64,000 bases of DNA. It comes from a virus (lineage: Duplodnaviria > Heunggongvirae > Uroviricota > Caudoviricetes). Below are positions 9,701 through 59,315 of this stretch, piece after piece. Below the pieces are notes generated by a model. It saw only the letters and a list, made by a program, of their open reading frames with translations. It was not told the DNA's origin and searched no databases. The stretch is from positions 31,203 to 95,202 of IMG/VR virus record IMGVR_UViG_3300033067_000504. One strand, given 5' to 3'. Positions within the stretch are counted from its first letter, which is position 1. Every line of letters begins with the position of its first letter. Position numbers and translations under genes: made by a program.

Positions 9701-12700
9701 TCATAAATTCTTTCTCCTTCATCTTGAGCTTTTAATTCTTGTATTTCATCTGTAGAGCTGTCCTCACCATCCTCAGGTACACTATATTCAGTACCGTCTT
9801 TTAGTTTAACAGTGAATCCCCATTTAGCAAAGTTCTTAAGTACTTCCGTTTTAAAACCAGTTTCTACCTGTAAATCAGTACCAATATCTTCCCACTGTCC
9901 TATTAACTCCTTTTCATCTTCTTCAACTTTTGAAGGATCAATAATACCCATTGAGATGTATATCTGTCTACGATATTCATCCTCGTCTACTCTATCATCC
10001 TCAGGTATAGCTACTATCCTATCGTAATCCTTTAGGAACTTGTTCTTTACTTCAGCAAATAGTTTATCTATTACTCCTTGTTGGGTAAATAGATCTTCAA
10101 ATTCAAGGTTTGCCTTTACAGCCCATTCTCTGGCAATATTCACTACCTCTTGAGTAGTTGCTGCTATAATTTCGTTCTGTTGTTTTGAATTAACCTGCCC
10201 AGGTAATAACCTGAAACTAGGGTCTTGGTCCTTTATACTAGCAGCAATATTAGCTTTCTGTTCTGCAGTTAGCCTTGTTGTTGCTATTTCTTTAAACAAT
10301 CTTTCTATTGGACTTCTTAATCCAAGCAAGTTCTGTATAGCCTGCCATAGTCTGGCAAAAAAGTTCTTTACTTCAAGTTTCTTAGGTTTTACTTTGCCAC
10401 CACTTAACATGTAAGCTCTGAAGTCTTCAGCAAGCTGCTCTTCAGTACCATACTTAAGTACTCCTTGTTGTTGTCTTGGAGATAATAAGTTATCAAACAC
10501 AAAGTGGAATGCTTCGTGGTAAGCTGTACCAGTCTCAGCGTAATCAGCTATAGTAACTAAGGCATTATGATATACACCAAAAGCCTCTATTCCACCATTA
10601 GCTATAATACGATCTACACCTTTTGCTATAGATAAGAACTCTTCTCCAATAGTATCTTTAAACCACTGAAGTTCTCTTGGGGTAATTACTTTGAAGGCAT
10701 GTTTACCAAATTCTGTTAAATCATAAGTGGAATAATCCTCTTTATCTTTAGCTCTGCCTATATCAAGTTTAGTTTTAAATATATCATTGTGGCTAGAGAT
10801 AAGTAATGGTCTTGTTTTGCCACTATAATTATATTGATAGGATACTAGATCTCTTTCTTTTGGGTCTATAAAGATGTCTACTAGAATACCTCTTTCCCCT
10901 GTAAAGCTTTCTTTACTATCATTGAATTGATAAGTACCAACTATTGATGGTAGGGGTGAGGAAGTATCCTCTACTAAATTGTAGGATAGTATTCTACCTT
11001 TAGAAGATTTACGTATATCTGCTACCTTAGTTCCAGGAGCTGGTACTATAAAAGTTAAGGTCTTGTACCCATTTGAATCAAAGTCATAAACTTTAATAGC
11101 ATTAGGGTAAGTTTCTGACATTAACTTACTTGCATCAGTACTTGATAGTTGATTTGTAATAAAGTCCAGATCATGAACTCCATACTGAGCATCTCTATAA
11201 ATACTTCCTTGCACAGATAGTGCTAAACTACCAGTTAAAGCTATTCTATTATTTGAAAGCTTTTCTATTACATCTGCGGCTAATGGGTTACTATCCAGAA
11301 TTTGGTTAAAATTAACAAGCTTTTTGCCAAGGCTTACTTCTCTAGTTTTACCATATAGGTCACTTAAAGATCTTTTACCTTTAGTCTTCTTTTGATCAGT
11401 TGGTTTAGAAACCTCAGGAACATTCTTTATTACAAGCTCATTAGGTGCTACCTCGTCAACAACTATTTGACTAGGATTAGGATCTAATGATACTGTAGCG
11501 TTGTGTATGGAGAATCCAGACTCATTACCTACACCTTGGTTTTTAGCTCCAAGTAATTTAGTTTGTAAGCTATTAGTAGCTGTAGCATACTCAAAGTAGC
11601 TATTATATGTAGTACCAGTTACAGGATCAGTGTAAGGTAGTTCTGAGTTGATATTAGTCTTCTTTACGTTCTTAAAAGAATGATCAAGAATAGTATCTAT
11701 TGCAGAATATAATACTGTGGTTGTCTCTGGGGTTACATTATATCTGTCTTTAGGGTTTGTATCTTTAAATGGTACCCCTGTCTTGCTAAGTAAATTTAAA
11801 CCAGCTACTGGACGTTTATTCATTAAATCGTCGAGTTGCTTTATAGTTAGTCTAGCCCAACCATACTTATAAGGCATTAATACTTCATCAAGTTCTTTAC
11901 CTTTAAAATCAATAAAGTAAAACTTGTCTCTTTTCAACTTTTGTATTTCACCTTTTTTAAGTACTCCTACCCCTTTATTTGGAATGTTAAGTACTTCTCT
12001 AAGAGTTTCTATCTGTCCATTGGAAAGTAATTTTACTATATTACTTTTAACCCAACCTTTCTCATTAGCATCAAGTTGTCTATTATCTAGTGGTATTACC
12101 TTTAGATCTCCTTTGGAATTGGTACGTAATACTACTGTTTGTCCTGGTTGTGGTTCTTTAGCAAATAATGATGTATCAAGAGTTTTTAATCTCTCAAATT
12201 CATTCTTACTCATACCCTTCATAGATTCTACATTAGGTAGTTTTAAACCACCTACATAGATACCAAGGATAGGGTTATGTTCTAGTTTACCTAGTTTCCA
12301 GTTATTATTCTCATCTTGGTAATAGTCAAACTGTAATACCTCAAGTGAGTTACTTACATCTGATTTTCTTACATCACCAAAGCTTTTATCACTAATGGTA
12401 GTTTCAAGCTTACCTGCAGCTATAACTTTCTTTCTTAGTTGCTCTACAAGTTTAGCATTACCTTTCTTGTTGTCCTCAAGATGTTTATTATCAGCTGATG
12501 GTAATTGAAATACAGGTTTACTATGACCTTCTACATAAGCATTAATTACAAAGTTATCCTGACTTGTGGGTTTAAACCCTGGAGTTATAGTAAAGGGGAA
12601 ATCGTTTTCAACCTTTAAAGTAACCTTCATTCCAGGTTGAATCATTGGAGTGTTAATTAACAGGTTACCATGTTTATCACTTGCAAATACTTCTGTAGGA

Positions 12701-15126
12701 TTAACAAGTTTACCAGAGTTATTGTCATACCACTCCTGTATAACTGCAGCTCCAGTTGCATCTAACTTTGTTTCAAACTTATTACCATTCCAAGTACCAG
12801 CTAGTTCTTTAAGATATACTGAAGCTTGGTTTGCAGTCTTTAGTTCTGTATTAGCTATTTTGTCCTGTGTTTTCTTAGAATCAGGTATTGCTTTCTCTTC
12901 TTGATCTTGCTCTTTTTCTACTTTAGCAAATATTTGAGCAGCTACTTCAGGACCAAACATTCTGGCACTTTCTTCTCTGGTTAATCCATTAATTACTTCT
13001 GGATCAGTTTCTGGTAGGTTAGAATCCTCCAAGAATGTCTCATCAGGCATAGGAGGTCCATTCTCAATATAGTCAGGAGGCCTAGCAATCAGATCTTCAG
13101 AATCTAATGCAGGAGGCCCATCGTTTGTAGCCTCAAGTGTATCTTCAAGAGCTTGTTGTACACTTGTTTTAACTTGTTTCTTATTTTCATCTTGCTTAGC
13201 CTTCTTTATCTCATCAAATCTAGCTGCAATCTTAGCTTTAGTTTCTGGACTAGAAGCTTTCTTTTCCATTTCCATTAATTCAGGAACTGAAGCTTTAGGT
13301 AGTTTAGCTTCTATACCTTTATCAATAGCTTTTTGAGTATAAGCCTTTAACCCTTCAGGAGTAGTTAAACTAACTAAATCCTTTTTGATTGCTTGCATCT
13401 TCTCGTCTGTAGAAGCTAATTGAAAAGCTTTCTTAAACATATCAGCATCCTTACTGGTATGTAGTATTGTATTTACGTCCTGATCAGGGAATGCAATAGA
13501 AGCCTGCATCTGTAGTGCTGTAGTAAGTTCTGCTGCTTTAGCTACAAATTGAGGATTAGTTTCAGCTAGTTTAGCATAACCAGCAGCACTAATTTGAAGA
13601 TCCTTTATTGCAACAGCTTCAGAAGATAATTCCTTAGCTTTAATTGCTTCCTGTTTTAGATCATTTAACTCTCTAGTTAGATCATCATTTAATCTGGTTA
13701 AATGACGTTGTTCCAGTTTAGTAGCTAATACAGCTGTGTGTATTTCTCCAGGTAAATTAGAGTTCTTTAGTTTAGCTTGTTCATCTTGTAGGAATTGTGC
13801 GTCCTCTACGTATTTACGTATATTAGCCTTAGCTTCTGGTGAAGCTTTAGGATCTTTTTCTAATTGTTCTAGGTCTGCTTTGTATTGTGGTAACTTCCCT
13901 GTAGCTATTTTTTGAAAAGCTAATTCAGTAAATGTTAAGTCATCTAATTTCTTAGATGTACCTGTATCACTAGTATAATTAGCATTTTCTTTTTGAATAC
14001 CTCTTTTAGTTACTTTATCTGTTTGTTTCTTTAATACTTCAGAAATTTTAGGTTGAGTGGGTGACTCAGTGCTTTCTTTATCCTTTTCTTCTGCAGCTAT
14101 ACCAGCTCCAGCAAATACAGCCCCACCTACGCCGCCTAAGAAAGCTGATGCTTGAAACTCTGGATCTTGTACGTAGTCAGATAATCTTTTACCAAAACCT
14201 CTACCAAAGAATTCAGTCTCAGCTGTTGCTGAGGAGTAGGCCTCTTCTGCTGTTACAAACTGTCCAGCCTCTTCTAGTGATTCAGATCCTATAGTTTTAG
14301 CTATCTCTCCAATACTTCTACCCATTACACCTTTTGATGCAGTAGTAAACCCTTTTAGTAAAGAGTTGTACTGCATGAAATCCATAGCAGAGAATACCCA
14401 GTTAGTATTCCATGTTTTAGATGCTGCTTCTCCTGCTTTTTGTCTGGCTATTTCATCAGACATTGTAGGATCTTCTTTTAGCTTAGCATAAGTCTTCTCA
14501 AATACCTGATTAGCCTCCATTGTAGACTCAGCGTATCTTGAAGCAAATGTTGCAGCTACACTACCTGCAGTTTTAGTTGCAGTTGCTCCTAAGTTTGCAA
14601 GTTTAGCAAATTTACTTGCTACACCCGCAGCACCCATAGCTGGAACCATTAATGATAGTGCTGTACCAATTGTAGATGGAGCATTCTTAGCCCACCAAGT
14701 TGCATCACCAGGAGCAAATCCTTCCTGAGCATCATCTGTTTGATAAACCTTAGTAGCATCCTGTACTTTAGCTTTTGCCTCTTTCATAGCATCAGCTAAC
14801 CAGTTAGTATACTCTTGTTCATCACCTTGAAGCTTTTGTACAGCTTGTTCCCAGTCTAATAAATAAGAAGCTCCTTCTATTGTTCCTAAAGTAGCTTCAG
14901 AGATTGTTTGTACTGCAGCTTTACCAAGTAATCCCCATTTGGATTGATTTGTAGCAATGTAGTTTTCTACATTACTATCAAATGGTAACGCATAATCCTG
15001 AAGGCTGGTATCTTCTGATTTAGTCTCTGCTGGGTAAGCATCATCTTTTGTTACTTGCATTGCTGCAGGTGTAATCTTGTACTTACTCTCCCCAGGAGTT
15101 TCTATATATCCACCTAATTTGTACAT
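727..15126 (-). CDS. giant 4799-aa virion-associated multidomain protein, candidate crAss-like virion RNA polymerase fused to a zincin-like domain
   Basis: Uninterrupted 14.4-kb ORF at the distal end of the tail-gene block, which is where crAss-like phages place their giant RNAP/cargo ORFs. It contains GFDFDVDKSS (DNA ~6448-6462) resembling the Asp-triad loop of DPBB RNAPs, and YVILHELTHAF (DNA ~3987-4007), an HExxH zincin motif with a Glu ~19 aa downstream. The N-terminus is Gly/Ala-rich with coiled-coil segments. Confidence 0.6.
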   Translation of the reverse strand: MYKLGGYIETPGESKYKITPAAMQVTKDDAYPAETKSEDTSLQDYALPFDSNVENYIATNQSKWGLLGKAAVQTISEATLGTIEGASYLLDWEQAVQKLQGDEQEYTNWLADAMKEAKAKVQDATKVYQTDDAQEGFAPGDATWWAKNAPSTIGTALSLMVPAMGAAGVASKFAKLANLGATATKTAGSVAATFASRYAESTMEANQVFEKTYAKLKEDPTMSDEIARQKAGEAASKTWNTNWVFSAMDFMQYNSLLKGFTTASKGVMGRSIGEIAKTIGSESLEEAGQFVTAEEAYSSATAETEFFGRGFGKRLSDYVQDPEFQASAFLGGVGGAVFAGAGIAAEEKDKESTESPTQPKISEVLKKQTDKVTKRGIQKENANYTSDTGTSKKLDDLTFTELAFQKIATGKLPQYKADLEQLEKDPKASPEAKANIRKYVEDAQFLQDEQAKLKNSNLPGEIHTAVLATKLEQRHLTRLNDDLTRELNDLKQEAIKAKELSSEAVAIKDLQISAAGYAKLAETNPQFVAKAAELTTALQMQASIAFPDQDVNTILHTSKDADMFKKAFQLASTDEKMQAIKKDLVSLTTPEGLKAYTQKAIDKGIEAKLPKASVPELMEMEKKASSPETKAKIAARFDEIKKAKQDENKKQVKTSVQQALEDTLEATNDGPPALDSEDLIARPPDYIENGPPMPDETFLEDSNLPETDPEVINGLTREESARMFGPEVAAQIFAKVEKEQDQEEKAIPDSKKTQDKIANTELKTANQASVYLKELAGTWNGNKFETKLDATGAAVIQEWYDNNSGKLVNPTEVFASDKHGNLLINTPMIQPGMKVTLKVENDFPFTITPGFKPTSQDNFVINAYVEGHSKPVFQLPSADNKHLEDNKKGNAKLVEQLRKKVIAAGKLETTISDKSFGDVRKSDVSNSLEVLQFDYYQDENNNWKLGKLEHNPILGIYVGGLKLPNVESMKGMSKNEFERLKTLDTSLFAKEPQPGQTVVLRTNSKGDLKVIPLDNRQLDANEKGWVKSNIVKLLSNGQIETLREVLNIPNKGVGVLKKGEIQKLKRDKFYFIDFKGKELDEVLMPYKYGWARLTIKQLDDLMNKRPVAGLNLLSKTGVPFKDTNPKDRYNVTPETTTVLYSAIDTILDHSFKNVKKTNINSELPYTDPVTGTTYNSYFEYATATNSLQTKLLGAKNQGVGNESGFSIHNATVSLDPNPSQIVVDEVAPNELVIKNVPEVSKPTDQKKTKGKRSLSDLYGKTREVSLGKKLVNFNQILDSNPLAADVIEKLSNNRIALTGSLALSVQGSIYRDAQYGVHDLDFITNQLSSTDASKLMSETYPNAIKVYDFDSNGYKTLTFIVPAPGTKVADIRKSSKGRILSYNLVEDTSSPLPSIVGTYQFNDSKESFTGERGILVDIFIDPKERDLVSYQYNYSGKTRPLLISSHNDIFKTKLDIGRAKDKEDYSTYDLTEFGKHAFKVITPRELQWFKDTIGEEFLSIAKGVDRIIANGGIEAFGVYHNALVTIADYAETGTAYHEAFHFVFDNLLSPRQQQGVLKYGTEEQLAEDFRAYMLSGGKVKPKKLEVKNFFARLWQAIQNLLGLRSPIERLFKEIATTRLTAEQKANIAASIKDQDPSFRLLPGQVNSKQQNEIIAATTQEVVNIAREWAVKANLEFEDLFTQQGVIDKLFAEVKNKFLKDYDRIVAIPEDDRVDEDEYRRQIYISMGIIDPSKVEEDEKELIGQWEDIGTDLQVETGFKTEVLKNFAKWGFTVKLKDGTEYSVPEDGEDSSTDEIQELKAQDEGERIYDLDHTLVSPAKSLTQRIKSFLSTIPEPVISDKGEIVYNEDGTQRVKTTVLGSPQIIDFRKAFRNLTGKIADHGTPLTRLEELSKLDPISKAIYDALSKEVASGNQRLLAEFNTKLNLVRHPYVTFLYGRDKQGTPIAKVIAADRADLQRTIVNKWREGAVKRNFIKSDGTVVTTKAEHLLKKLLEAKSLITSTTPYADVEKQFKGVLKEIGIELAPQTWIEMSNKRGAPKTIRDMLFLEKSSSLLDFLQEAVKGEKDPFENLSKLSVLNRLAAVEKSYIDDVRADVFLNEAGNQVNSINTPSYIAEFINDLHNNGAEKAAFYLQDKFYQGNAFIDLWKHDKTASRVNFYLPSAMRKDEGKAKEFGDRTTTDSYLMRLIGFHNGGANEGFVSVGTLSDKSKQVFLTLPKHVGKNAESFLRKVMRNTVDNEISRIKRIKAGLPVDLSTYQDRGQKFVYLPELNNIQGITDSVSDGEVKPADLDRINKEIDQVITKFIDTNYAQFVSDLINEGVIKRNKEGKLENVEISPAILQGKEINTLLQEFFYNDIAWRTEMSKVFHGDMALYKDDDAYYKRGYQIVTPGLKAWDNPEKPLKLIRAIFQRIIKTNSDEYLLSLAQLIDPSVKSLKETGKSAVKQALKYKKVNKTDAQSLCTVHAWKNIMERFGAWTKDHQRVYDFAWGKNLTISEAIKANGYNPEQAKEMRGLAAKVVLQPFKPFQISDRVLDTPTGKMILKEQFKDSISPLIPDFAKKHNNQEGGYGSLLTYMTQHNIDIISSDDAVKVGAYGVITDFSVPPTSIQSREVSINDIRFPQIIPDKVKTEVTMLTQFWKLLPGNIDPKTKYSVGNKELTGEQVMEQLNELWAERTATSSKELQNKLGLDSTWKLSEDKAKRKDQLFKLKTLLQSELMSRDLNDNYHDSLQLILRNIDRPEFTLQLGFPMLGRKFLSVLTNLFKKNILKQKEPGYSMINLADFGISNKEQNSNLSFIRNNKGEIEEAEIGMPIEFFSQIKLNWIEDVDPITNKIKWEKLNQQQKEALQMIMVRIPTSNKSSMMPVRVAMILPKAMGSVVMVPGEGTTQMGFDFDVDKSSLIKRVLDKEGKIDKESIDTKLFDLAWSILTNKAHAEELLTPLAAPTLEEKVEEYSKLPDPLGSGNIVNTTNKGYVLSTVTDVRMERQNKQAKSGIGIASRFNTGHAMMQALKDFITVPGIRINTSNYKFNKVGGVLDNEGNLISNNHAQLQHAELDGAKDPLLAKLNVPPVLLPLAGYMVDVGMSLSLTMDFLNQPIIREWLRMYGISGGTNIYTATAKLLEEYPQIKAAVDDFRTGEEKKGKYITIPEIKEGLTIPISQNVVNQAKIFDDFTNYLNHAQLVSDLNTVLSIDTFQDMTGIEAIESFSAKVAKVTNQDSPVSISKRVFDLATAPPQAKRLAAFYKYSLNDAISLTSQFYPYFSNSYRDIKNTYANAAGIANLTDKDTLIKLNQFTDFYVLEGKNLLRPTLDKVSPNYTSRWSFFDNEKTIWRHLQSVVEKYPGLKDNALIKGIESIPTNRRDGIPMIGVVNTNSNLDKTQMIQGWWDMMTSPNEAVRILAGDLIRFAIYTSGFGYNTKSFIDLVPVQFWVQNGIAENHRVVLEGMYTTDESGQSATQLNSLGVVRSFIRHNFADLDIPEVFYYESKDGDTKTNLKNVKKTFTTGQQLDSFVVSDDDRTFNGRNSTETMPQFVKLWDYDSRRYRLYEASPSKPSRQETLYKEVQPLGEAGNFFEVSPNGDNKSYLDRNKDSGKPTPFGTGKSIDMPLNGGSVGTNKYVATYIPGHKTTPEVALQRIVERETNVRSKQLASVLLNNADKINSDLFAEALEPRIVDGKSYGRVGTYRMFESGNTKIIINNEANIKSDSAQRYVILHELTHAFISGVIAHPQTEREINFKRNMERLWEKAKKLDPKNKQIYNLQEFVAELASNAAFRDRLKSGGLWSTLLRLVRKVLGLPSEFDQALDEMYSIINETEQLQRISASDFDLLMENEKKTPSQRKRLDIIERVMSSLKAREERLRVFGQKEQADLLKKDIDVLKQLSGVKRNQFIVKFLAIVGKEVDALNKTVERLSAVDPANVNTGVLLAAKEQLDSYSVLDQIRLELRKNPEAFAPVKEAVPALLKQFEELFNTIKDRKEDIRNITINRVATVIKQKSNNPDLKIAEIKDRLEVADRDISWTNRLFDPLADSSDEALATLDKLIKHAFSEGSRLTNQDLYTKEPKEVTVEYKHYNEKNKKIGKDGFKYKAVGLFKALQDFEAWTGKKDTIADKFKAIIDTETLQNNSNGVSFISPISPRGKEILAIKEGSKDYPLRQFYENFVLGYLKSQEAIHLPSMRPGLRIPTIQRSLMEGILAEKGLGKLDVLKQEAIDTIRRRYDETDFRAVDENGKPQDYIPIRFISRQDGKDGRLSTREVSLDIATTVGIFMNEMHTYKQLEKIVADAELIKSALEQRELVKEGNRVEGHGLTGFLTRERKAITDPESGLMQTIKGSESNAYKAAETGIRRLIYGQFKKDAGQAKVFGQNIDIRKSVDSFMKFTGLRILFGNLAIPLTNLGMGHLTMAKEAIGGNLISMSNWKAGQAFYGKVLKDAILDLGNREKKTKFGRVYTYFNPADNQRPVDHIGIDTTKMRTVLPHLTRGLSESTEFNLSSVALGAVFDRFKAANSEGKEVSLYDAIEVSMDGKISLSKGYKYKSKSTLEGKDIDEVRDYALRLYQNMNGVYNKLDSSAIKETVAGSLIMFMRNWLAPGIATRYRLRHFDERLQQENEGHYISALVLFNNYFHPDNGFVKGTLDSLKTMLWMEATDPESLLLPNELGLPEEKKQQIINMRKANVRKTIFELYVIAGLSVLMFAGFDDDDQDSYALYMLARMRREMMTFISPSTAWDVLRSPSVAINTIDAMNKALYSTVNAAGALLTGEELKVMEQGKGKGLTEVWYRTRALTPLGQLDQFDELDTSVRLITKGWR

Positions 15127-27624: not shown

Positions 27625-27695
27625 ATTAGTTTTATTTAGTTTAGATACAAAGATATGATAATTCTAGGGTATAATCCAAATATTTAGTAAGCTTT

Positions 27696-40834: not shown

Positions 40835-40918
40835 AGTTTAATTAGTTTAGTTGTTCAAATATACCCTAATGTTTAGTTACTTACCAAATTCGTTAAGCTT
40901 TTGAGCTGTTACCATAGT

Positions 40919-50066: not shown

Positions 50067-50124
50067 GCTTCAAATATAAAACTAGTTTATTAGATCTCCA
50101 AATATTTTTTGTGTTTTATTTTAG

Positions 50125-50208
50125 TGCCTCTGGTAGGACTCGAACCTACTCACCCCTAAGGGAACAGATTTACAGTCTGTCGTAACTCTCCAACTTTACC
50201 GCATAGGC
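50125..50208 (-). tRNA. tRNA-Tyr (GTA), type II with long variable arm
   Basis: Hand-folded: anticodon stem-loop ACAGA-CTGTAAA-TCTGT; T-arm GTAGG-TTCGAGT-CCTAC; long variable arm. One mismatch in the acceptor stem; no encoded CCA. Confidence 0.7.
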
Positions 50209-50213
50209 TTAAG

Positions 50214-50299
50214 TACTCCTAACAGGAATCGAACCTGTACCCCTATTACTAGGGAAGGGATTTTAAGTCCCTCGCGTCTACCAGTTCCGCCATAGGAGC
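50214..50299 (-). tRNA. tRNA-Leu (TAA)
   Basis: Hand-folded: anticodon loop CTTAAAA; T-arm ACAGG-TTCGATT-CCTGT; long variable arm; G1-U72. Confidence 0.7.
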
Positions 50300-50304
50300 A
50301 ATTG

Positions 50305-50377
50305 AGGGGAAGGTAAGGATCGAACTTACGACCTAGACATTAACAGTGTCTTGCTACTTCCGCTGAGCTACTTCCCC
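50305..50377 (-). tRNA. tRNA-Asn (GTT)
   Basis: Acceptor GGGGAAG/CTTCCCC perfect; anticodon AGACA-CTGTTAA-TGTCT; T-arm GTAAG-TTCGATC-CTTAC. Confidence 0.75.
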
Positions 50378-50382
50378 TTTAG

Positions 50383-50464
50383 TACTTTAGGAGGGACTCG
50401 AACCCCCACGCCTTTCGGCACCAGATCCTAAGTCTGGCGTGTCTACCAGTTCCACCACTAGAGC
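50383..50464 (-). tRNA. tRNA-Leu (TAG)
   Basis: Anticodon CCAGA-CTTAGGA-TCTGG; variable-arm hairpin GCCGAAAGGC; T-loop TTCGAGT; acceptor has G1-U72 and one C-A mismatch. Confidence 0.6.
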
Positions 50465-50469
50465 GTAAG

Positions 50470-50541
50470 GTGTTAGATGAGATTTGAACTCACGATCAAG
50501 GTTCCACAAACCTATGCTTTAGGCCGCTAAGCTACTAACAC
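50470..50541 (-). tRNA. tRNA-His (GTG), no genomically encoded G-1
   Basis: Acceptor GTGTTAG/CTAACAC perfect; anticodon TAGGT-TTGTGGA-ACCTT; T-arm GTGAG-TTCAAAT-CTCAT; discriminator C; position -1 is U. Confidence 0.7.
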
Positions 50542-50543
50542 AG

Positions 50544-50620
50544 TAAGGTATCCAGGATTTGAACCTGGGAATCTCTTCCTTCCAAGGGAAGCGAGGACGA
50601 CCGGACTCCTCCAATACCTT
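50544..50620 (-). tRNA. tRNA-Pro (TGG)
   Basis: Acceptor AAGGTAT/ATACCTT; D-arm GAGG-AGTCCGGTCGT-CCTC; anticodon CTTCC-CTTGGAA-GGAAG; T-arm CCAGG-TTCAAAT-CCTGG. Confidence 0.75.
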
Positions 50621-50761: not shown

Positions 50762-51301
50762 TTAAGCAAGTTTTTGTTGGATTATTTCTTCTAATTTTTT
50801 AGGATAAGCCACCATTATTTGCCTAATTACAAGGTTTTTAGGGTCTGCTGATATTAAAGGTTCTTTCCAATCAAACCAAACTCTTAGGAAATCTTCATGA
50901 GGTATTCCTCTCTTTTCCCCTATTTCTGGATCTAGTAAGTGTATCTTTTCCTTATCCAATTCAACTACTACACTAGAATGTCCATTAGGCATATCCTCCA
51001 AACCAGAGTTTAAACCTGGACTAAACCAATCTACTATTACTGGGATATTGTGGTCTAACCAGTACTTAATGTCGTCTAGTGTGCTGTCGTTTTGAATAAT
51101 ACATCCCAGTCCATACGACTCGATTGCTGCTTTCATGTCAGTATCGTAACAACCAAGTTTGTAGGTATGGTTACATCTTTTAGCTATTTCTTCCTCAGTA
51201 GTATCTATGTGGTAGTAATACAGTATCATTCGTATTGATGCTGGGCCACATAAGCTAGAATCACTCTGTTTGAATATTGGTATCTCTATCATAGGGTACA
51301 A
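50762..51301 (-). CDS. C39-like papain-fold cysteine peptidase, 179 aa
   Basis: QSDSSLCGPASIRMIL (Gln...Cys catalytic motif of C39/C39-like peptidases) with a downstream NGHSSVVV His and a later Asp. Confidence 0.5.
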   Translation of the reverse strand: MYPMIEIPIFKQSDSSLCGPASIRMILYYYHIDTTEEEIAKRCNHTYKLGCYDTDMKAAIESYGLGCIIQNDSTLDDIKYWLDHNIPVIVDWFSPGLNSGLEDMPNGHSSVVVELDKEKIHLLDPEIGEKRGIPHEDFLRVWFDWKEPLISADPKNLVIRQIMVAYPKKLEEIIQQKLA

Positions 51302-51426
51302 AGGTCTAAAAAGTAGGGGTAGGAGTCAAGGATATTAGTGGATATAACTTAGTCCCCTGGGTCTTAAGGGGTTAGAAAGTACCCCCCTACCCTAAATTAT
51401 TAAGCCTGTGAATTGAGTAAGGTACC

Positions 51427-51450
51427 CGATCACTCTAACTCCCCCTCATA
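51427..51450 (+). promoter_or_regulatory. repeated leader/promoter-like motif, copy 1 (CGATCACTCTAAC...CTCATA)
   Basis: Near-identical 13-mer plus downstream TCTCTCATA-like element; occurs three times in the ORF-poor region, each upstream of a small plus-strand ORF. Confidence 0.35.
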
Positions 51451-51502
51451 CTTGGAGTGAATCTTGTACCCCCTAACCTAACTGTTATGAAAACGAAAAG
51501 TT

Positions 51503-51652
51503 ATGGAATTTGAATATTATCTGCAATTGGCTATTGAGGAGTATTTAGTGAAGTTTGGTGATGATGGGTTGACAGTTCATCTCCTTCATAAGTTAATAAC
51601 AAGAGCTAATAAATTGCAAAAAGAGGCTGAAAATCGTCTTAATAAAGCTTAA
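51503..51652 (+). CDS. mini-ORF, 49 aa (MEFEYYLQLAIEEYLVKFGDDG...)
   Basis: ATG 60 nt downstream of motif copy 1; below the ORF-track cutoff; helical, charged sequence. Confidence 0.3.
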   Translation: MEFEYYLQLAIEEYLVKFGDDGLTVHLLHKLITRANKLQKEAENRLNKA

Positions 51653-52270
51653 ATATTTCCTCCTGTGGGTATGTAGCCAGCGCAGGGTAACATAGATTGG
51701 AGTCATTATGACTTAGCCAATGTTACAAGGAATACTGGCAGCGAATGCACCATAACTCATGTAGATATAAAGACTTCTTAGCAATATGTAAATATATCAA
51801 GACTATTGAGCATTAAGGACTGTAAACAGTAAATATAGGCTCTACAACTACTTGAATGACTAAGATGTGAAACTACCTGATTACAAAAACTAACCACATA
51901 CCAAGCGCAATATGAGTATAGGCTCTAATCCTATCAAGGTATAAGTATTGTGTGGCAGGTAATCAGCTCCCAAGGATGAGCAGTTGTAATAGGTAGCCCA
52001 GCGAGAATATCGTGGCAAGACACTCCTTCAATGGGAGATTACAGAACTATTACAACTGAGTTGCAGAGGGTTAAAATATTTTAATATTATCGACAAGTTG
52101 AATATAATTGGACAATAGTATTTGATCCTAAATTAATCTAAAATTGGTATCATTGTGGTTTTACTAGGTGTATTATTTACGTCTGCTGTCATTGCTTATG
52201 CAATCCAATCAGCACATGTAACTGGTTACTAGTATGTTGAGCCTGCAATATGGCTCAACCACCAAGGACA

Positions 52271-52294
52271 CGATCACTCTAACATTCTCTCAAT
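52271..52294 (+). promoter_or_regulatory. repeated leader/promoter-like motif, copy 2
   Basis: CGATCACTCTAACATTCTCTCAAT; ~60 nt upstream of the 52333 ORF; shares a CTAACC..TA.AC.GTTATG pre-start segment with copy 1. Confidence 0.35.
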
Positions 52295-52332
52295 TTGGGC
52301 AATATTGCCACATTATCTAACCCTATACGGTT

Positions 52333-52581
52333 ATGAAATTCTTGAAAACGTCCATCAATAAGAGTGGACAACAGTTCATCCAGTGTCGTGAAGAGTCAGT
52401 GGATGATGATGGTGTAGTTACTGCAACTCAGGGCTTCATCGAAGTTGCACCTGAAAAGGCAGATGGCTTGATTGCGAAACTCCAGAACGGAGAACGCAAG
52501 GCTGAATTCGGAGCCAAAAACCGCACAACTGGCCTTTATGAGGTCATTGTGTCGAAAGTTGAGGCTGAAACTGCAGCGTAA
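52333..52581 (+). CDS. small acidic protein, 82 aa
   Basis: ORF downstream of motif copy 2. Confidence 0.45.
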   Translation: MKFLKTSINKSGQQFIQCREESVDDDGVVTATQGFIEVAPEKADGLIAKLQNGERKAEFGAKNRTTGLYEVIVSKVEAETAA

Positions 52582-52700
52582 TGTAAGTTGTAGTTAATGG
52601 GTTAGTGCTCTCTGTAGAGGGAGCACTTTCCTATGACTTTACGTAACTAAAGTTGTATTGATAGTGAGTAGCTACTAATGTAGTTATTCACTAACCAACA

Positions 52701-52724
52701 CGATCACTGTAACTATCTCTCATA
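52701..52724 (+). promoter_or_regulatory. repeated leader/promoter-like motif, copy 3
   Basis: CGATCACTGTAACTATCTCTCATA. Confidence 0.3.
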
Positions 52725-53971
52725 CAGGGTTAGTTATTCAATAGTCTAATTAGTTGTTATTATTCTAATAGTCTGTAGTAATACTAGCTATTTAACTAGT
52801 AATCAATTAGTTATTCATATTCTCTATTCATTATGAACATGATAAATCATTATTCAATAGTCTTGCAAGCTATTGATAGTCAAATAATTGGTGTAACTTA
52901 TTTACACTTGCAATAGTTTTAATAGTTATTAGCGTGAGGATTGAATGTGATAGTTAGTCCTATACCCTATATTTCAACCTATTTTAACTATCAACCTGGA
53001 ATTGCCTTTAATTAAGCTATTAAGCTGGCTGGTATTTATACCTCTAATTTATAGCTATTCAACATACAATTAATTACTCAAAACATACAATCTAACCACC
53101 ACTTTATGGCACATTCAAGCAAAGAACAAGTATTTGAAGTACTATTTCAGGAACTTAAAGAAGGTGGAATGGCAAGTGAATAGACAAGAAAATATTATGA
53201 TTTTGAAATCATAATTAGTACATTCATATTATTCTCATCAAATAGTGTGAATAGAGAAATTACTAGTTGGTTGTGAGAATTGATCTTCTCATGTATCCAC
53301 GGAATAGCAGCATTCACGACTCTGTAAACAGGGAAGTAAAACATGCGACTAGTAATTTCTTACTTTATTTTACTTATAACACACCTTTTTCCCTCCTTAA
53401 AAGAAAGAAAACCTGTTAGTTTAATATGCCAGCTGTATCAAGTCTGTTAAACTGTGCACGAATTCTAACAAAGGATTCACAGTACTAATCAATTGGTCAT
53501 GAGATGGTTACAACCGACCTTTGCTACTAATTGTGGGATGTCAACGCAAGCAATTGATTATCAGGGATATTTGCGGGGCTTACTGTACCTGATCCAAGCT
53601 ATTCTCATAGCAAGTTAAAACTGGCCTAACCAGAGTAACACAAAGCTAGAGTGAGAAATTAGAATTTCCAAGTATAATGTTGTTTATTTACTAAACAGTA
53701 TTCAGTAACTAAACAGTGTTTACTTTATAGATACAGTCAGGTAGTGACATATTGTCACACAAATTGAGGAGTGATTTGAGACTGACAAAATGACACTCAC
53801 TCCAATGTATGATAGCCTATAATGGGATACGTTTGTATGTCTGAGTTAAAACATGGGTAAAATATTACAATTCGGGTTTTTGTAATATCTTGCTAAACAG
53901 CTTGCTGAACAACATGTATAGGACACCGTGGAAAAGCCCATTATTTTACTGAACTAACAAAATCTAACTAT

Positions 53972-54265
53972 ATGCCTATTAAACAAACAGAACATAGGAG
54001 AAAGAATGGTGGCCTTAAACCAAAATCTCCAAACAATCCAAATCCTGACCCTAACTCTAAACGTTCAAAAAAACGTAAGGCTCGTGGATTCAAATCACTT
54101 GAGTTATCTTCTCGCAAACACAAAAGAGCAGAGAGAAGATTGGCGATTAGCCAAACAATTGCTGGTAAACGTTATCCAGCAGGAACACCTGTAGATGGTG
54201 CATATAGCCAAGATGATTTTACTTATCATTCAGGTGGTGCACGTAAGTATCACGCAACAAAATAA
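53972..54265 (+). CDS. highly basic Lys/Arg/Pro-rich protein, 97 aa (nucleic-acid-binding-like)
   Basis: ~30% K+R; KRSKKRKARG / RKHKRAERR clusters. Confidence 0.45.
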   Translation: MPIKQTEHRRKNGGLKPKSPNNPNPDPNSKRSKKRKARGFKSLELSSRKHKRAERRLAISQTIAGKRYPAGTPVDGAYSQDDFTYHSGGARKYHATK

Positions 54266-54271
54266 CCAAGC

Positions 54272-54412
54272 ATGGCAAAGAAAACAGGATTTAACAAAGT
54301 TCTTGGAAGACAAGACTATGTTGTGAAAGGTCTAAGGATCTACAAAGGTAAAACCAAAGAAGGTAAAGCAATCACAGAAGAGCTTACCTACCTTGATTTT
54401 ACTGGTAAGTAA
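54272..54412 (+). CDS. mini-ORF, 46 aa (MAKKTGFNKVLGRQDYVVKGLRIYKGKTKEG...)
   Basis: Starts 7 nt after the previous stop (operon-like); below the ORF-track cutoff. Confidence 0.3.
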   Translation: MAKKTGFNKVLGRQDYVVKGLRIYKGKTKEGKAITEELTYLDFTGK

Positions 54413-55231
54413 CGATTTAACTCTTCTGCTTGAAGACAAACAACTACTCAAACCAGAGTTTACTGGGCTGTAGTAATACATTCGGTTAATCCGTAGAGAG
54501 TGCGCTGTTCTAGCAGTTAATGTTTGTTGTAGAGATGTGGGACTCTGGAGTAATGCACATTCCAACTAGAAAATTTGGACAGAAGAGTTATTAATACTAA
54601 AACTATTACTTTGTATTACCGAAAACTGGGGTGCAGTTGCTAGGGGTGTGCACACTGAGCAATCAAGACGAAAACCTAAATTCATACAGTTCGAGTAGTA
54701 GTTTTAACATAACCAGCACATACCAACAAACACTGGTTCATAGTGGTATAAGGTGATAAACCACTATTTTAAAACATTGCAATCACGGAAGACAATGACA
54801 AACTACACATATTGAAGGCTTCAGGGTATTAAGGTTCCCATTACGCGAATGGAGAAAGGTATTCACCGAACAGTAATGATAGTTATGAGTCTTGAGCCGT
54901 GTGGGTTAGTATTAGAGTTGCTTTTGTAACTTGATGACTAACCTAAAATAATAGGCTAAACATTGATCCTTATAACAAGAGAGTTAATACTCCCTGTAAT
55001 GAGGGGAAATTACATATCATTACTAACAATACATATCGCATATTGTTACTCTTGTTTAAAAAGTAATAACTACTTGAACGGAATACAGGAAGCATAATGG
55101 AATCCAATGCGTGTTAATTAAGCTGGAAAGGACTGAGGAGTAGTAGATGATAAATCGACTTAAAACTCTGAAACTCACAGAACTGTGTTATTACTTTTAA
55201 TTTGAATTCTCTAAACCATAAACTATACTTT

Positions 55232-55354
55232 ATGAAAAGATTCATTATTCTTATTGTTGCAGTAACTTTAATTGCTTTTATAGCAATGAGTTGCTCAACG
55301 TACACCTGCCCTACCTATGCTGGTAGTAAAGCAGATCATCATCGGGTGAATTAG
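55232..55354 (+). CDS. mini lipoprotein/secreted peptide, 40 aa
   Basis: MKRFIILIVAVTLIAFIAMSC: signal peptide with a lipobox-like AMSC, then a Cys-containing tail. Confidence 0.3.
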   Translation: MKRFIILIVAVTLIAFIAMSCSTYTCPTYAGSKADHHRVN

Positions 55355-55386
55355 TTAAGCACTAGAAATTAACATTAAATAATTAT

Positions 55387-56112
55387 ATGAAAATACAAAT
55401 AGTGAAAAAGGATAGCAGTAAGAAATTCAATTTTCTTGCTGGTATAAATCGTGCAATTCGTCCAGCGCAAGTAACTAGACTAGCAGAGTCTCTAAAGAAA
55501 ATGGGATGTCTTAGACCAGTTGTTATTGCCCACCTCTCTTTTAAAGAGCTAGTAGGTAACTACGTTATTGATGGTCAACACCTATTTCATGCACTCATTC
55601 GTAATAATATGGATATCCCATTTGTTATGATAGATGTAGCAGATGAGCAAGACTTAGTAGAAAAGTTAGCACTACTAAATAATAGCTCAAAAAGTTGGAC
55701 ACTTGCTGACTATCTACAGGTGTGGGCATGGAGAAGTGAGGAATATAAAAAGCTTCTCAAATATTACAATACCTATGATTTTGAAATAGGAATTCTTGCA
55801 TCTATTCTTTCTGGTAGGGTAGATGGGGGATCACTTACGCAAATGATTAAGCGTGGAAAGTTTAAGGTTGTAAATGAAGAACAAAATAAGAATCTGTTAG
55901 ATTATCTAACGGACGTACTTGCAATAGTTCCTAGAATGCGTAGATTTGAAAACAGATACCTCTGCAAAGAGTATGTGACGTTCTATCGTGCAATGGGTAG
56001 TAAGTATGACCATGCAAAGTTTCTTAAAAAGCTAAGCAAAAACAAGCTAGAATTTGTGCTTGCAACACAAGAACCAGGTAAGCTAGTGAATTTATTCACT
56101 CACTTGGTATAA
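55387..56112 (+). CDS. ParB/sulfiredoxin-fold (DGQH motif) nuclease-like protein, 241 aa
   Basis: YVIDGQHLFHAL resembles the ParB-N / DndB-type DGQHR catalytic-loop region. Confidence 0.4.
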   Translation: MKIQIVKKDSSKKFNFLAGINRAIRPAQVTRLAESLKKMGCLRPVVIAHLSFKELVGNYVIDGQHLFHALIRNNMDIPFVMIDVADEQDLVEKLALLNNSSKSWTLADYLQVWAWRSEEYKKLLKYYNTYDFEIGILASILSGRVDGGSLTQMIKRGKFKVVNEEQNKNLLDYLTDVLAIVPRMRRFENRYLCKEYVTFYRAMGSKYDHAKFLKKLSKNKLEFVLATQEPGKLVNLFTHLV

Positions 56113-56406: not shown

Positions 56407-58104
56407 ATGTTTAAGCAAAAACAAAAACAACTGATTGAGATTTCTCAATCAACATCTGGCACAACCACAATGGAATCACCATTTGTAGCAGCTGCAAACA
56501 AGAAATCAGCACGTACCTTAAGTGGTAATGGTGCACTCAAATACTCAACAACAGGTAATGACTTTGTTGATCAATTTGGTAAGCTAGGATCTTATAAAAC
56601 TCCTCGTACATATGAAGAGATAGCTAATGATATGGCAACACTGTGGGCAATAAACCCATTGCTAACTGTATGCTTTACTCTGTTCATTCGTATGATTACA
56701 AGAGTGGTAGTATCATTTGATGGTATCAAGACAGCATCACCTCAACGTGGAGCAGGATTGAAAAATGAAGGTATTATGAGAATGATGTGGATTAACATCA
56801 ATCATCGTGATACGTTCTGGAAGAACTTTGGTTTATTTGTTATGGTGGGTTCATGGAAAGATGTCTTTGTGATGTTGTCCTTAGATCTTCAGTATAATGG
56901 ATGGAAATCAAGAATGTTAGATTGGGATAAGTTTGGACAAGCAATACTTGTTGGACTTGAGAATCCTAATACTACCAACTTGGTTAAGAAATATCTACCC
57001 CAACTAAAATCAAACGCACAGTGTAAAACATTGGAATCACAAGCTAATAACATCATTGCAAAATGGTTGTGCAGCTTGTTGTTTGGTGGTAAAAATGGTG
57101 ATACACAGTTTCAGAATTATAAGAAGTATCGCCAGTTAAAAACCAGTGGTACAGCTCACACATGGCAACAACACATATCTCGTAAAGATCTAATTAAGCT
57201 TGACTTTAATACTGTACATGGTAGAGCTTTAGCTCAAATGGTGTCAGGTAAGTTCTTGGCTAATAACGGATTAGAGAAGAGGTATGAGGAATGGATAGCT
57301 AACAAACCAATAGCTAAGTTTACTGGTTATGTAACTGAGTTGTTCATCAAAACTCCAGAGAAGAAGTATCAAATTGATACATTGAATGCTCAGTTCAATG
57401 GATTAATAGAAACAGCAAAAAAGAGTGCAATTACTGCAACAAACTTTATTTCTGTTGTTGATACCAGTGGTTCAATGAGTACACCTAATAGTGGAATCAA
57501 GATGGAGAATGTGGATGTTGCTAAGTCATTAGCATTATTCTTCTCACAAATGTTAAACAAAGGTCCATTTGCTAACGCATGGTTTGAGTTTAACAGTTTT
57601 GCGGTTCTTCATACCATTAAAGGTTCAACACCTTGGGAGAAATGGTGTGACATGAAGAGATATAGTCATACTGGTAGTACAAACTTTATTTCAGTAGTAG
57701 AATATCTAATTGATATCAGGAAAAAGAATCCAAAGTTAGCAGAATCAGATTTCCCACAAGGATTTCTGGTAATGTCAGACATGGAGTTCAATCCTACTCA
57801 GTTTGGTACTAATACTGAAACTGTATTCAAGAGATTGCGTACAGTATTCTCTAAAGAGTTTGTAAACAACTTTAAACTTGTATTCTGGAACCTACAAAGC
57901 AATGCGTATGGTCGAGGAACAGGTGAAAAGTTTGAAACACATGGTAATGAGAAGAATGTATTCTATTTCTCAGGATACGATGGTAGCATAGTAGCATTCT
58001 TAACTGGTGTGGAGGGTAAAGCTGAAAAGCCTACACCCACTACTGCAGAAGAGTTGTTCAAAGCCGCTATGGACCAAGAGGTTCTTAAACTTGTAGAAAT
58101 TTAA
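56407..58104 (+). CDS. vWA-domain protein with an N-terminal helical domain, candidate Ro60/Rsr-like (TROVE+vWA) RNA-binding protein; alternative: DUF2828-type vWA protein
   Basis: Canonical MIDAS motif VVDTSGSMS at aa ~345 with downstream Thr and Asp candidates. The 565-aa length and vWA placement match Ro60 orthologues. The gene is immediately followed by an array of tRNA-mimic structured RNAs, as at rsr-yrlA loci. Confidence 0.5.
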   Translation: MFKQKQKQLIEISQSTSGTTTMESPFVAAANKKSARTLSGNGALKYSTTGNDFVDQFGKLGSYKTPRTYEEIANDMATLWAINPLLTVCFTLFIRMITRVVVSFDGIKTASPQRGAGLKNEGIMRMMWININHRDTFWKNFGLFVMVGSWKDVFVMLSLDLQYNGWKSRMLDWDKFGQAILVGLENPNTTNLVKKYLPQLKSNAQCKTLESQANNIIAKWLCSLLFGGKNGDTQFQNYKKYRQLKTSGTAHTWQQHISRKDLIKLDFNTVHGRALAQMVSGKFLANNGLEKRYEEWIANKPIAKFTGYVTELFIKTPEKKYQIDTLNAQFNGLIETAKKSAITATNFISVVDTSGSMSTPNSGIKMENVDVAKSLALFFSQMLNKGPFANAWFEFNSFAVLHTIKGSTPWEKWCDMKRYSHTGSTNFISVVEYLIDIRKKNPKLAESDFPQGFLVMSDMEFNPTQFGTNTETVFKRLRTVFSKEFVNNFKLVFWNLQSNAYGRGTGEKFETHGNEKNVFYFSGYDGSIVAFLTGVEGKAEKPTPTTAEELFKAAMDQEVLKLVEI

Positions 58105-58663: not shown

Positions 58664-59077
58664 ATGAAACATTTATTCCTTATTCTAATCCTATTTGCTA
58701 CAGCTTGTTCTAAACAGGATGTAGCACCCAAAGCACCAATAACTATTGAAGGCAATTGGAGCTTTGATTTCACTGATAAAACTGTTGGTGGCTCATTTAC
58801 TATTGAAACAGTAAATAATAAACTGGCAGTGACTAAAGGTTCTTATTATACTACCTGTTGTGGTGGTATTAAGAATACAGTAATCATTGGTAAAGTTACA
58901 CAACTACCTGATGATAAGACAGTTATTACATTACAAGGAGCTGATATTAGTAATGCACTGATACTGCATGTAAGCTCTATTAGTACAGATGGTAACACAA
59001 TAATCAGTGATAATACTACTGATTACCACACGTTACAGTTCTGGACACAAGTAGTAACAATTAAACGTACACTCTAA
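58664..59077 (+). CDS. lipoprotein, ~138 aa
   Basis: MKHLFLILILFATAC: signal peptide plus lipobox (FATAC) from the ATG at 58664. The track's 58646 start is a TTG inside RNA unit E and is unlikely. Confidence 0.5.
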   Translation: MKHLFLILILFATACSKQDVAPKAPITIEGNWSFDFTDKTVGGSFTIETVNNKLAVTKGSYYTTCCGGIKNTVIIGKVTQLPDDKTVITLQGADISNALILHVSSISTDGNTIISDNTTDYHTLQFWTQVVTIKRTL

Positions 59078-59090
59078 CCTTCTCTCATGT

Positions 59091-59315
59091 ATGGCTAGAC
59101 ATTTATTTAAAGTACCATTACCAACAAGTGATATGTTTATTTATAGTGTTAGCCTAAAAAAGAAAGAAATAGGTTATGAAGTAAGAGATCCTGAAGGTAA
59201 GTTGCTTGAAACACCAGGAGTAGCTAAGATCACAACAGATGCTACCAAAGCATATTTTGATTCTAGATTTATTCCTATTGATCTGATAAAACACATTGAA
59301 ACAGTATTATCATGA
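59091..59315 (+). CDS. hypothetical protein, 74 aa
   Basis: ORF. Confidence 0.35.
   Translation: MARHLFKVPLPTSDMFIYSVSLKKKEIGYEVRDPEGKLLETPGVAKITTDATKAYFDSRFIPIDLIKHIETVLS

Follow-up and report, generated by a model that had tools for sequence, protein, structure and literature searches.

What occupies the 4-kb gap between two divergent gene blocks of a crAss-like phage, where long open reading frames (ORFs) are lacking? The question is raised by positions 51301-55386 of a stretch of 64,000 nt, called the window here (positions 31,203 to 95,202 of IMG/VR record IMGVR_UViG_3300033067_000504). crAss-like phages belong to the most abundant viruses known; to our knowledge, no promoter has been defined for the virion polymerase that they carry. 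We consider it likely that the rightward gene module has its leading end here and that small units, each exchangeable on its own, take the place of long genes. The units would be mini-genes encoding a 34-aa membrane peptide, orf82, orf97, orf46 and the lipoprotein-like orf40, at least two structured plus-strand noncoding RNAs (ncRNAs), RNA-1 and RNA-2, and further stable RNA or DNA structures; four copies of a ~30-nt motif would act as phage-specific promoters for the units and presumably be read early. RNA-1 would be an autonomous module moving between unrelated phages, which here landed in the membrane mini-gene on a 641-nt cassette. Anatomy, conservation, covariation, strain polymorphism and the lack of long ORFs are observed directly, whereas promoter activity, early timing, transcription of the RNAs and their roles are inferred.

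The window carries a giant ORF of 4799 aa on the minus strand (727-15126), and exact-protein look-ups found the same phage in 19 assemblies. Its leftward block of large genes, a module of structural and tRNA genes, ends in six tRNAs (50124-50620) followed by a C39-type peptidase (50762-51301). The rightward module includes ParB-like and Ro60-like genes and opens with the ParB-like gene at 55387-56112. The region forms the gap between the two, with the strand switch at 51.3 kb.

The original prediction had called this region poor in ORFs, and this was borne out. Plausible small ORFs total ~960 nt or ~23% of 51301-55386. ORFs of at least 60 aa in 51302-55386 are orf82, orf97 and two doubtful ones, a 62-aa ATG ORF (54006-54194, plus strand) nested in orf97 but in another frame and, on the minus strand, a 77-aa ORF starting with TTG. 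An alternative genetic code was rejected: reading TAG, TGA or TAA as sense opened no long ORF in the region. A suppressor tRNA was not found in the window. ARAGORN and Rfam detected neither tRNA nor tmRNA in 51301-55386, the genes that ORF-poor stretches beside the Ro60-like gene usually contain in relatives; Rfam 15 (4227 models, gathering threshold) returned only the six tRNAs over the window and, at E≤5 over 51200-55500, just two chance snoRNA matches. A higher GC content had also been claimed for the region and was not seen; it amounts to 0.34-0.38 versus ~0.36 for the window and falls to 0.27-0.30 in an AT-rich trough at 52700-53300. The small ORFs listed earlier all exist, and one of them, of 49 aa, proved to be part of an inserted cassette described below. 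The others include the following.

52333-52581, plus strand: orf82; one distant homolog (P0141, 57% identity), at the same position in L371
53972-54265, plus strand: orf97, a basic small protein; 19 homologs with 49-66% identity on phage-sized contigs
54272-54412, plus strand: orf46; a 65%-identical homolog at L089 7263-7382
55232-55354, plus strand: orf40, lipoprotein-like, with a signal peptide and then Cys

Judged from these homologs, orf97, orf46 and orf82 are probably real genes. Weak PHROG matches were obtained for orf40, including a Cor-like exclusion protein at E ~1e-3 to 1e-2.

A comparison with 50,697 deposited phage genomes yielded no DNA match to the region, and relatives were not found by an IMG/VR search anchored on the ParB-like protein. 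Relatives, designated here by L numbers, were retrieved via proteins of the region: L089 by the 565-aa protein, L371 by orf82 and the sister strains by the ParB-like protein. L368, a relative by orf97, and L370, a further L001-type strain, contributed nothing new comparatively.

A repeated element ahead of small genes

A 13-mer had been reported to occur three times. Exact copies of CGATCACTCTAAC lie at 51427 and 52271, the one at 52701 contains one mismatch (CGATCACTGTAAC), and a fourth copy at 59066 (CGTACACTCTAAC), with the same CTCTCAT..GG element downstream, had been missed. Allowing ≤2 mismatches, 0.92 matches of the 13-mer were expected by chance, and four were reached in 1 of 100 shuffles. 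The four copies in the window have the element ACG(AT/TA)CACT(C/G)TAAC-N3-CYCTCA-N4-GG in common and are confined to the plus strand. A 34-nt weight matrix scored these sites at 44-49 bits and everything else in the 64 kb below 14 bits.

51422-51455, plus strand: motif copy 1, GTACCCGATCACTCTAACTCCCCCTCATACTTGG; the ATG of the membrane mini-gene (51487) is 60 nt past the 13-mer start
52266-52299, plus strand: motif copy 2; the ATG of orf82 (52333) is 62 nt past the 13-mer start
52696-52729, plus strand: motif copy 3; no ORF behind it, pointing into an AT-rich stretch
59061-59094, plus strand: motif copy 4, outside the region; extends over the start codon of the small gene that follows

Copies 1 and 2 share a leader and a nearly equal distance to the ATG, in agreement with the predicted duplication of leaders. 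Copy 4 covers both the stop codon of a 143-aa gene and the ATG that opens the following small gene (59087/59091); were transcription to begin in its CTCTCA, the mRNA there would be leaderless.

A search for the motif in related phages had been suggested, and both L089 and L371 were found to possess their own variants at equivalent positions; otherwise they have no DNA alignable with the region. The first copy (~683 in L089, ~8674 in L371) lies directly past the strand switch, and behind it comes an ORF for a small membrane protein (L089 825-962, L371 8797-8880), analogous to the 34-aa gene, which in its uninterrupted form sits 60 nt behind motif copy 1. The second copy precedes the next small gene, in L371 (~8950) the homolog of orf82. 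Eight aligned copies from the three phages are invariant at CG-N3-A-N4-AAC-N5-C-N-C-N6-GG, with ACGATCACTCTAAC...CTCTCA...GG as the window form. The 13-mer itself is genome-specific and reads CGATCACTCTAAC in the window, CG(C/T)TTATTC(T)AAAC in L371, and CGGCAACCAAAAC or CGCTCACTTAAAC in L089. Uniformity within a genome combined with divergence between genomes is expected if the factor that reads the signal is encoded by the phage and co-evolves with it.

The ~30-nt element is most likely a phage-specific promoter of small units, as suggested by its sense orientation, its repetition upstream of the first small genes and the position-matched variants in two relatives. This part of the original prediction, which took the motifs for early promoters, has been strengthened; that the injected virion RNA polymerase, or else a phage-modified polymerase, presumably reads them early is what we infer. 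Promoters of the sigma-70 type and the Bacteroidetes type showed no plus-strand enrichment in the region, and terminators were at chance level. Matches of the Bacteroidetes type (TTTG-N17-23-TANNTTTG) occur at 40856-40888, 50071-50102 and 27648-27680, all on the minus strand and intergenic in the leftward module; there is none in the rightward early region, and their total is not above chance.

The divergent spacer just to the left of motif copy 1 shows, at 51313-51395, long-range complementarity between a G-rich and a C-rich run (GTAGGGGTAGG ... CCCCCCTACCC). C-rich runs are present at the equivalent place in L089 and L371. This segment could be a bidirectional terminator or lie near a genome end.

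The motif copies might also be read as a DNA-binding array for the adjacent ParB-like protein or a replication initiator, with the replication origin at 52680-53300. The relevant segment is the stretch into which copy 3 points.

52680-53100, no strand assigned: AT-rich stretch with GC 0.27-0.30; three exact copies of TAGTTATTCA (52681, 52731, 52808) besides further short direct repeats

This stretch is a candidate for an origin or a protein-binding array, and six of the ten single-nucleotide polymorphisms (SNPs) relative to L001 are located within 52807-53102. The ParB-like gene nearby, the three copies of TAGTTATTCA in the AT-rich trough and a minimum of the cumulative GC skew near 50-51 kb fit an origin. 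However, this minimum coincides with the gene-strand switch and is hence confounded by it, and with ≤1 mismatch allowed, TAGTTATTCA shows no enrichment in the window. Moreover, the motif copies are non-palindromic, have a single orientation and are spaced by 844, 430 and 6364 nt, and two of them lie at a fixed 60-62 nt ahead of start codons. We regard it as quite unlikely that the motif is such a binding array in place of a promoter, and retain the promoter as its preferred reading; the AT-rich stretch keeps its status as a candidate origin.

A structured RNA on a strain-variable cassette

The 49-aa ORF had been listed among the small ORFs, and the stretch behind it as untranslated. Comparison with the sister strains L001, L002 and L370, which are 99.3-99.6% identical to the window, showed them to be a strain-variable insertion of 641 nt in a mini-gene, missing with exact junctions in these three strains and present in L003.

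51487-51502, plus strand: 5' part of the membrane mini-gene, first 5 codons and 1 nt
51503-52143, plus strand: 641-nt strain-variable cassette with the 49-aa ORF, then RNA-1, then a 68-nt tail
51503-51652, plus strand: 49-aa ORF in the cassette; its last codons overlap the 5' end of a 105-nt block common with the L001-type cassette
51655-51745, plus strand: block A, the 5' domain of RNA-1; 100% identical to L001 9335-9439
51744-52075, plus strand: RNA-1 core, long form, with helices H1 (UGCAC/GUGCA), H2 (CUCAU/AUGAG), H3, H4 and H5 (CAGUUGUAAU/AUUACAACUG)
52144-52232, plus strand: 3' part of the membrane mini-gene, the remainder of the split 34-aa gene

The cassette splits the 34-aa membrane mini-gene (MKTKSFGIIVVLLGVLFTSAVIAYAIQSAHVTGY) after codon 5; the gene is intact in L001 (5901-6005). 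Imperfect direct repeats of 19 nt are found at 51508 and 52078. The 49-aa ORF had no family match, and its coding status is uncertain. Instead of this cassette, the sister strains contain another of 840 nt at window position 54971/54972 (L001 8745-9584), which comprises RNA-3, a 58-aa ORF, a truncated RNA-1 (5' domain and last block) and tRNA-Met(CAT) at L001 9509-9582. Both cassettes have 105 nt and 24 nt in common at 100% identity. Sister strains with and without each cassette provide a natural contrast for competition or expression experiments. The tRNA cluster differs between strains as well: tRNA-His(GTG), at 50469-50541 on the minus strand of the window, is absent in the L001-type strain (L001 4600-5040).

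Since the insertion is nucleotide-exact, lies within a probable gene and carries a highly structured conserved RNA, it could be an intron or a self-removing element, the 34-aa membrane gene still being expressed. The junction is unambiguous, with AUGGAAU at the start and CUAAAA at the end of the insert. A group I intron was rejected because the terminal G is not present at this end, and a group II intron because the insert starts with AUGGAAU rather than GUGYG and does not end with AY; Rfam intron models gave no match to either. The ends fit neither intron group, hence we read the insert as a cassette insertion. Furthermore, the conserved RNA fills only its middle, and RNA-1 is intergenic and often tandem elsewhere. 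An intron is scarcely credible here.

RNA-1 extends overall over ~51655-52075. The first lead to it was a 32-nt match between the window and the distant locus L051. The RNA-1 query AATCAGCTCCCAAGGNTGANCAG matched 31 IMG/VR contigs, and the shorter pattern CCCAAGGRTGAGCAGTT was found in at least 120 metagenome contigs, at least 89 of which carry at least two further blocks of the family. In bacterial and archaeal genomes, 4 of 120 among the matches listed were real members, all on contigs of metagenome-assembled genomes. RNA-1 was not found in the 50,697 deposited phage genomes. The stretch 51630-52090 matched nothing in Rfam 15 at E≤10, and a comparison of 18 RNA-1 loci with Rfam placed no model over the RNA. 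Its conserved strings had no match in the literature searched; RNA-1 may be among the uncharacterised candidates of large screens, e.g. a 2023 catalogue of phage RNA candidates (PMC10690425). RNA-1 is a widespread, phage-restricted family supported by covariation and not found in Rfam 15 or the searchable literature.

Elsewhere the RNA mostly takes a short form of ~115-200 nt, UAAUGCACCAYWWCUCAC-UUCCCAAGG-GUGAG-CAGUUGUAAU-(variable hairpin)-AUUACAACUG-A-GUGCA-GAGGG. The long form in the window (~330-420 nt) has the extra hairpins H3 and H4 in the H2 loop and, in addition, block A, which is conserved upstream of the RNA-1 copy of L120 with its hairpin swapped. The family is defined by AAUGCACC..CUCAY, optional H3 and H4, YUCCCAAGGRUGAGCAGUUGUAAU and AUUACAACUGAGUGCAGAGGG, with helices H1, H2 and H5, and the window contains these elements. 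Four block hidden Markov models trained on 13 IMG/VR members without the window matched it once each and in order, at 51744-51781 (E=8e-12), 51860-51883 (E=1.5e-6), 51960-51991 (E=3.9e-11) and 52048-52071 (E=7.8e-5), with no further matches in the window. The pruned covariance model R1 found the window with E=6.8e-5 and 0.0024, two matches resulting from hairpin insertions of 58-80 nt.

Covariation was counted with hairpin tips pruned by hand and on a highly conserved core. In the long form (21 sequences), 95.6% of the cells pair, versus 26-48% with partners slid, and eight pairs show compensatory change versus 1.4 in shuffles (0 of 500). The short form (42 sequences) gave 98.1% versus 32-54% and eight compensatory pairs versus 2.7 (0 of 500). 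The compensations include C-G to U-A in H1 and C-G to U-A in H2, in four sequences each; the window carries the compensated H2 variant CUCAU/AUGAG, as do L094, L258 and L302. Frequent G-U pairs identify the plus strand as the RNA strand. A loop-tail pseudoknot of UCCC with GGGR is possible to probable; its partners are invariant, so that covariation lends it no support. RNA-1 folds around a three-way junction, and its core is invariant while the tips of its hairpins vary freely.

What might such an RNA do? It is always co-oriented with the neighbouring small ORFs; however, across ~90 loci the neighbouring genes are unrelated and form ORF clusters of at most 3-4. The lack of a conserved neighbour gene favours an autonomous module over a leader or riboswitch, and a cis-regulatory role of this kind was rejected, as there is no consistent downstream gene family in these loci. 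Head-to-tail tandem units are frequent and abut directly, GCAGAGGGAU being followed by AAUGCACC. Our best guess is that RNA-1 acts in trans by binding a conserved host or phage factor, in takeover or anti-defence.

The main alternative is a self-cleaving processing ribozyme, i.e. a new class cutting polycistronic early transcripts or tandem RNA arrays. The position between co-oriented small genes without a conserved neighbour, the directly abutting tandem copies, the invariant unpaired junction nucleotides beside varying hairpin tips and the optional H3/H4 would all suit such a ribozyme; additionally, hatchet ribozymes (Rfam, 82 bits) are located 1-1.3 kb from RNA-1 in two uncultivated phage contigs (L095 191-325, L101 3088-3239). 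Known ribozyme families, however, gave no match at E≤10, a cleavage site is not readable from the sequence, and the same features suit a protein- or ligand-binding RNA. Self-cleavage is rather unlikely in our judgement, and a trans-acting RNA is preferred.

A possible protein partner is encoded downstream of the region.

56407-58104, plus strand: Ro60/TROVE+vWA-like RNA-binding protein, 565 aa (Pfam DUF7788, PHROG 850 'RNA-binding protein')

The AlphaFold2 model of this protein (pLDDT 75) matches the Ro60 structures 2i91, 1yvr, 9nep and 2nvo. The protein has >1700 homologs, and in relatives its gene adjoins arrays of 16-27 tRNAs and tmRNAs. The predicted Ro60 fold, the location beside tRNA arrays and tmRNA, and L051, where RNA-1 is found 2 kb upstream of the Ro60-like gene, raise the possibility that the RNAs form Y-RNA-like ribonucleoproteins with the Ro60-like protein of the phage. 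However, a Y RNA or YrlA match was not found in Rfam, and RNA-1 is present in 1 of 80 Ro60-centred loci (L051) and the protein in 1 of 31 RNA-1 loci (the same contig). This lack of co-occurrence leaves little weight for a partnership, which we consider highly improbable. The locus resembles known ribonucleoproteins of Ro60 and Y RNA (bacterial Rsr/YrlA; phage Ro60, PMC4201824, PMC12135203) in having a Ro60-fold gene close to ncRNA genes, and differs from them in lacking both Y-RNA features and co-occurrence of RNA-1 with the protein.

RNA-2, RNA-3 and further folded segments

Untranslated stretches had been proposed as possible sites of ncRNAs. This holds for two of them: 51650-52330 carries RNA-1, and 54420-55230 carries a second RNA, RNA-2. 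Stable folds were also located.

53254-53362, plus strand: branched stem of very high stability, in which a 15-bp helix encloses two hairpins; inverted repeat
54416-54594, plus strand: RNA-2, just after orf46; P1 UAACUCUUCUG/CAGAAGAGUUA, conserved middle and 3' blocks, variable inserts
54895-55010, plus strand: two stable hairpins

RNA-2 aligns with L089 (3128-3408) in three collinear blocks of 94-100% identity and also matches the IMG/VR contigs L364, L365 and L366. Block identity reaches ~95-100% in phages whose proteins are ~60-65% identical. The consensus fold consists of an 11-bp closing helix, a second long-range helix and two hairpins. Covariation is nearly nil, hence the evidence for RNA-2 is conservation at the nucleotide level and not a proven structure. 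In L366, from ~870 onward, the ORF immediately behind RNA-2 has the N-terminus of an HNH/NUMOD4-like homing endonuclease (WRDIVGYEGNYQVSSFGNIRSL).

The segment 53220-53369 folds at -42.2 kcal/mol (z=-4.44), and 0 of 200 shuffles were as stable; 54895-55044 folds with z=-3.83 and contains the insertion site used in the sister strains. Relatives of the folds at 53254-53362 and 54895-55010 were not found. In the early region of the closest relative, L089 5512-6468 is a reverse-transcriptase gene (RVT_1), which could belong to a diversity-generating or retron-like element.

RNA-3, the 5' part of the sister-strain cassette, is homologous to the first early ncRNA of the crAss-like Cellulophaga phage phi14:2; further loci with RNA-3 include L012, L036 and L094. 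Transcription between g004 and g006 of phi14:2 runs rightward through the intergenic stretches, early, at a very high level and above most genes, with function unknown (Drobysheva et al., bioRxiv 10.1101/2020.03.07.982082). These early ncRNAs (g004-g005, g005-g006) come from an ORF-poor stretch opening the rightward early module of a crAss-like phage, as in the window. However, RNA-1 and RNA-2 were undetected in the first 12 kb of phi14:2, and its second RNA is a tmRNA (ARAGORN, NC_021806 = L367, 4031-4500), whereas the window has none. tmRNAs are also encoded by the crAss-like relatives L012, L019, L036 and L095. The comparison of phi14:2, the sister strains and the window indicates that this genome position is a recurrent home of ncRNAs whose identity varies by lineage and strain.

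Several observations weigh against a region of promoters, exchangeable units and RNAs. The spacing from motif to gene is inconsistent, copy 3 having no ORF and copy 4 lying over a start codon. Moreover, phi14:2, the only crAss-like phage whose early 5' ends have been mapped, shows no common upstream motif among its early transcripts (bioRxiv 10.1101/2020.03.07.982082), in contrast to the repeated motif of the window; the promoter reading is hence without direct precedent. Only 8 pairs covary in RNA-1, its core being so conserved, and its single-sequence folding energy is no better than that of shuffles (z=-0.4 and -0.7). To this is added the near absence of covariation among the four distinct sequences of RNA-2. 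Finally, ~1.9 kb (52730-53970 and 54600-55230) have no detectable relatives.

These 1.9 kb, the SNP cluster at 52807-53102 and the ordinary small genes that close relatives such as L009 have in the equivalent space might indicate a region that is mostly decaying, with dead early genes, and in which only promoters and mini-genes matter. Decay does not fit RNA-1 and RNA-2 blocks that are 90-100% identical in phages otherwise without DNA similarity, and tblastn with the small ORFs found no frame-shifted gene remnants. We judge widespread decay to be distinctly improbable and keep to a leading end with small exchangeable units, ncRNAs and promoter-like motif copies.

Known systems and significance

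The large RNAs GOLLD and ROOL resemble RNA-1 in being phage-borne, with invariant junctions, variable hairpins, a location sometimes near tRNAs and a function unknown. RNA-1 differs from them in being much smaller, in its fold, in its frequent tandem arrangement and in having no Rfam match. The hatchet, twister-sister, pistol and HDV-like theta ribozymes are likewise found between co-oriented small phage genes and have a compact conserved core, and a hatchet is close to RNA-1 in the two loci named above; none of their models matched RNA-1, for which catalysis is hypothetical. T7-type promoters and the PeSL elements of T4-type phages are phage-specific promoters or mobile regulatory cassettes. 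The motif described here shares with them a long genome-specific sequence, repeated in one orientation in front of small early genes where the genome is hyperplastic, and variants that differ between related phages; there is no sequence similarity.

RNA-1 and RNA-2 are compact, conserved and suited to work on structure and function, RNA-1 being present in well over 100 uncultivated phage contigs. The genome-specific motif, with its variants in relatives, is a concrete promoter candidate that can be tested with the giant protein. More tentatively, and with rather low probability, RNA-1 may found a new class of phage RNA, either a self-cleaving ribozyme or a mobile trans-acting RNA directed against a host factor or defence and spread on cassettes among uncultivated phages, and the motif may be the first defined promoter of a crAss-type virion RNA polymerase.

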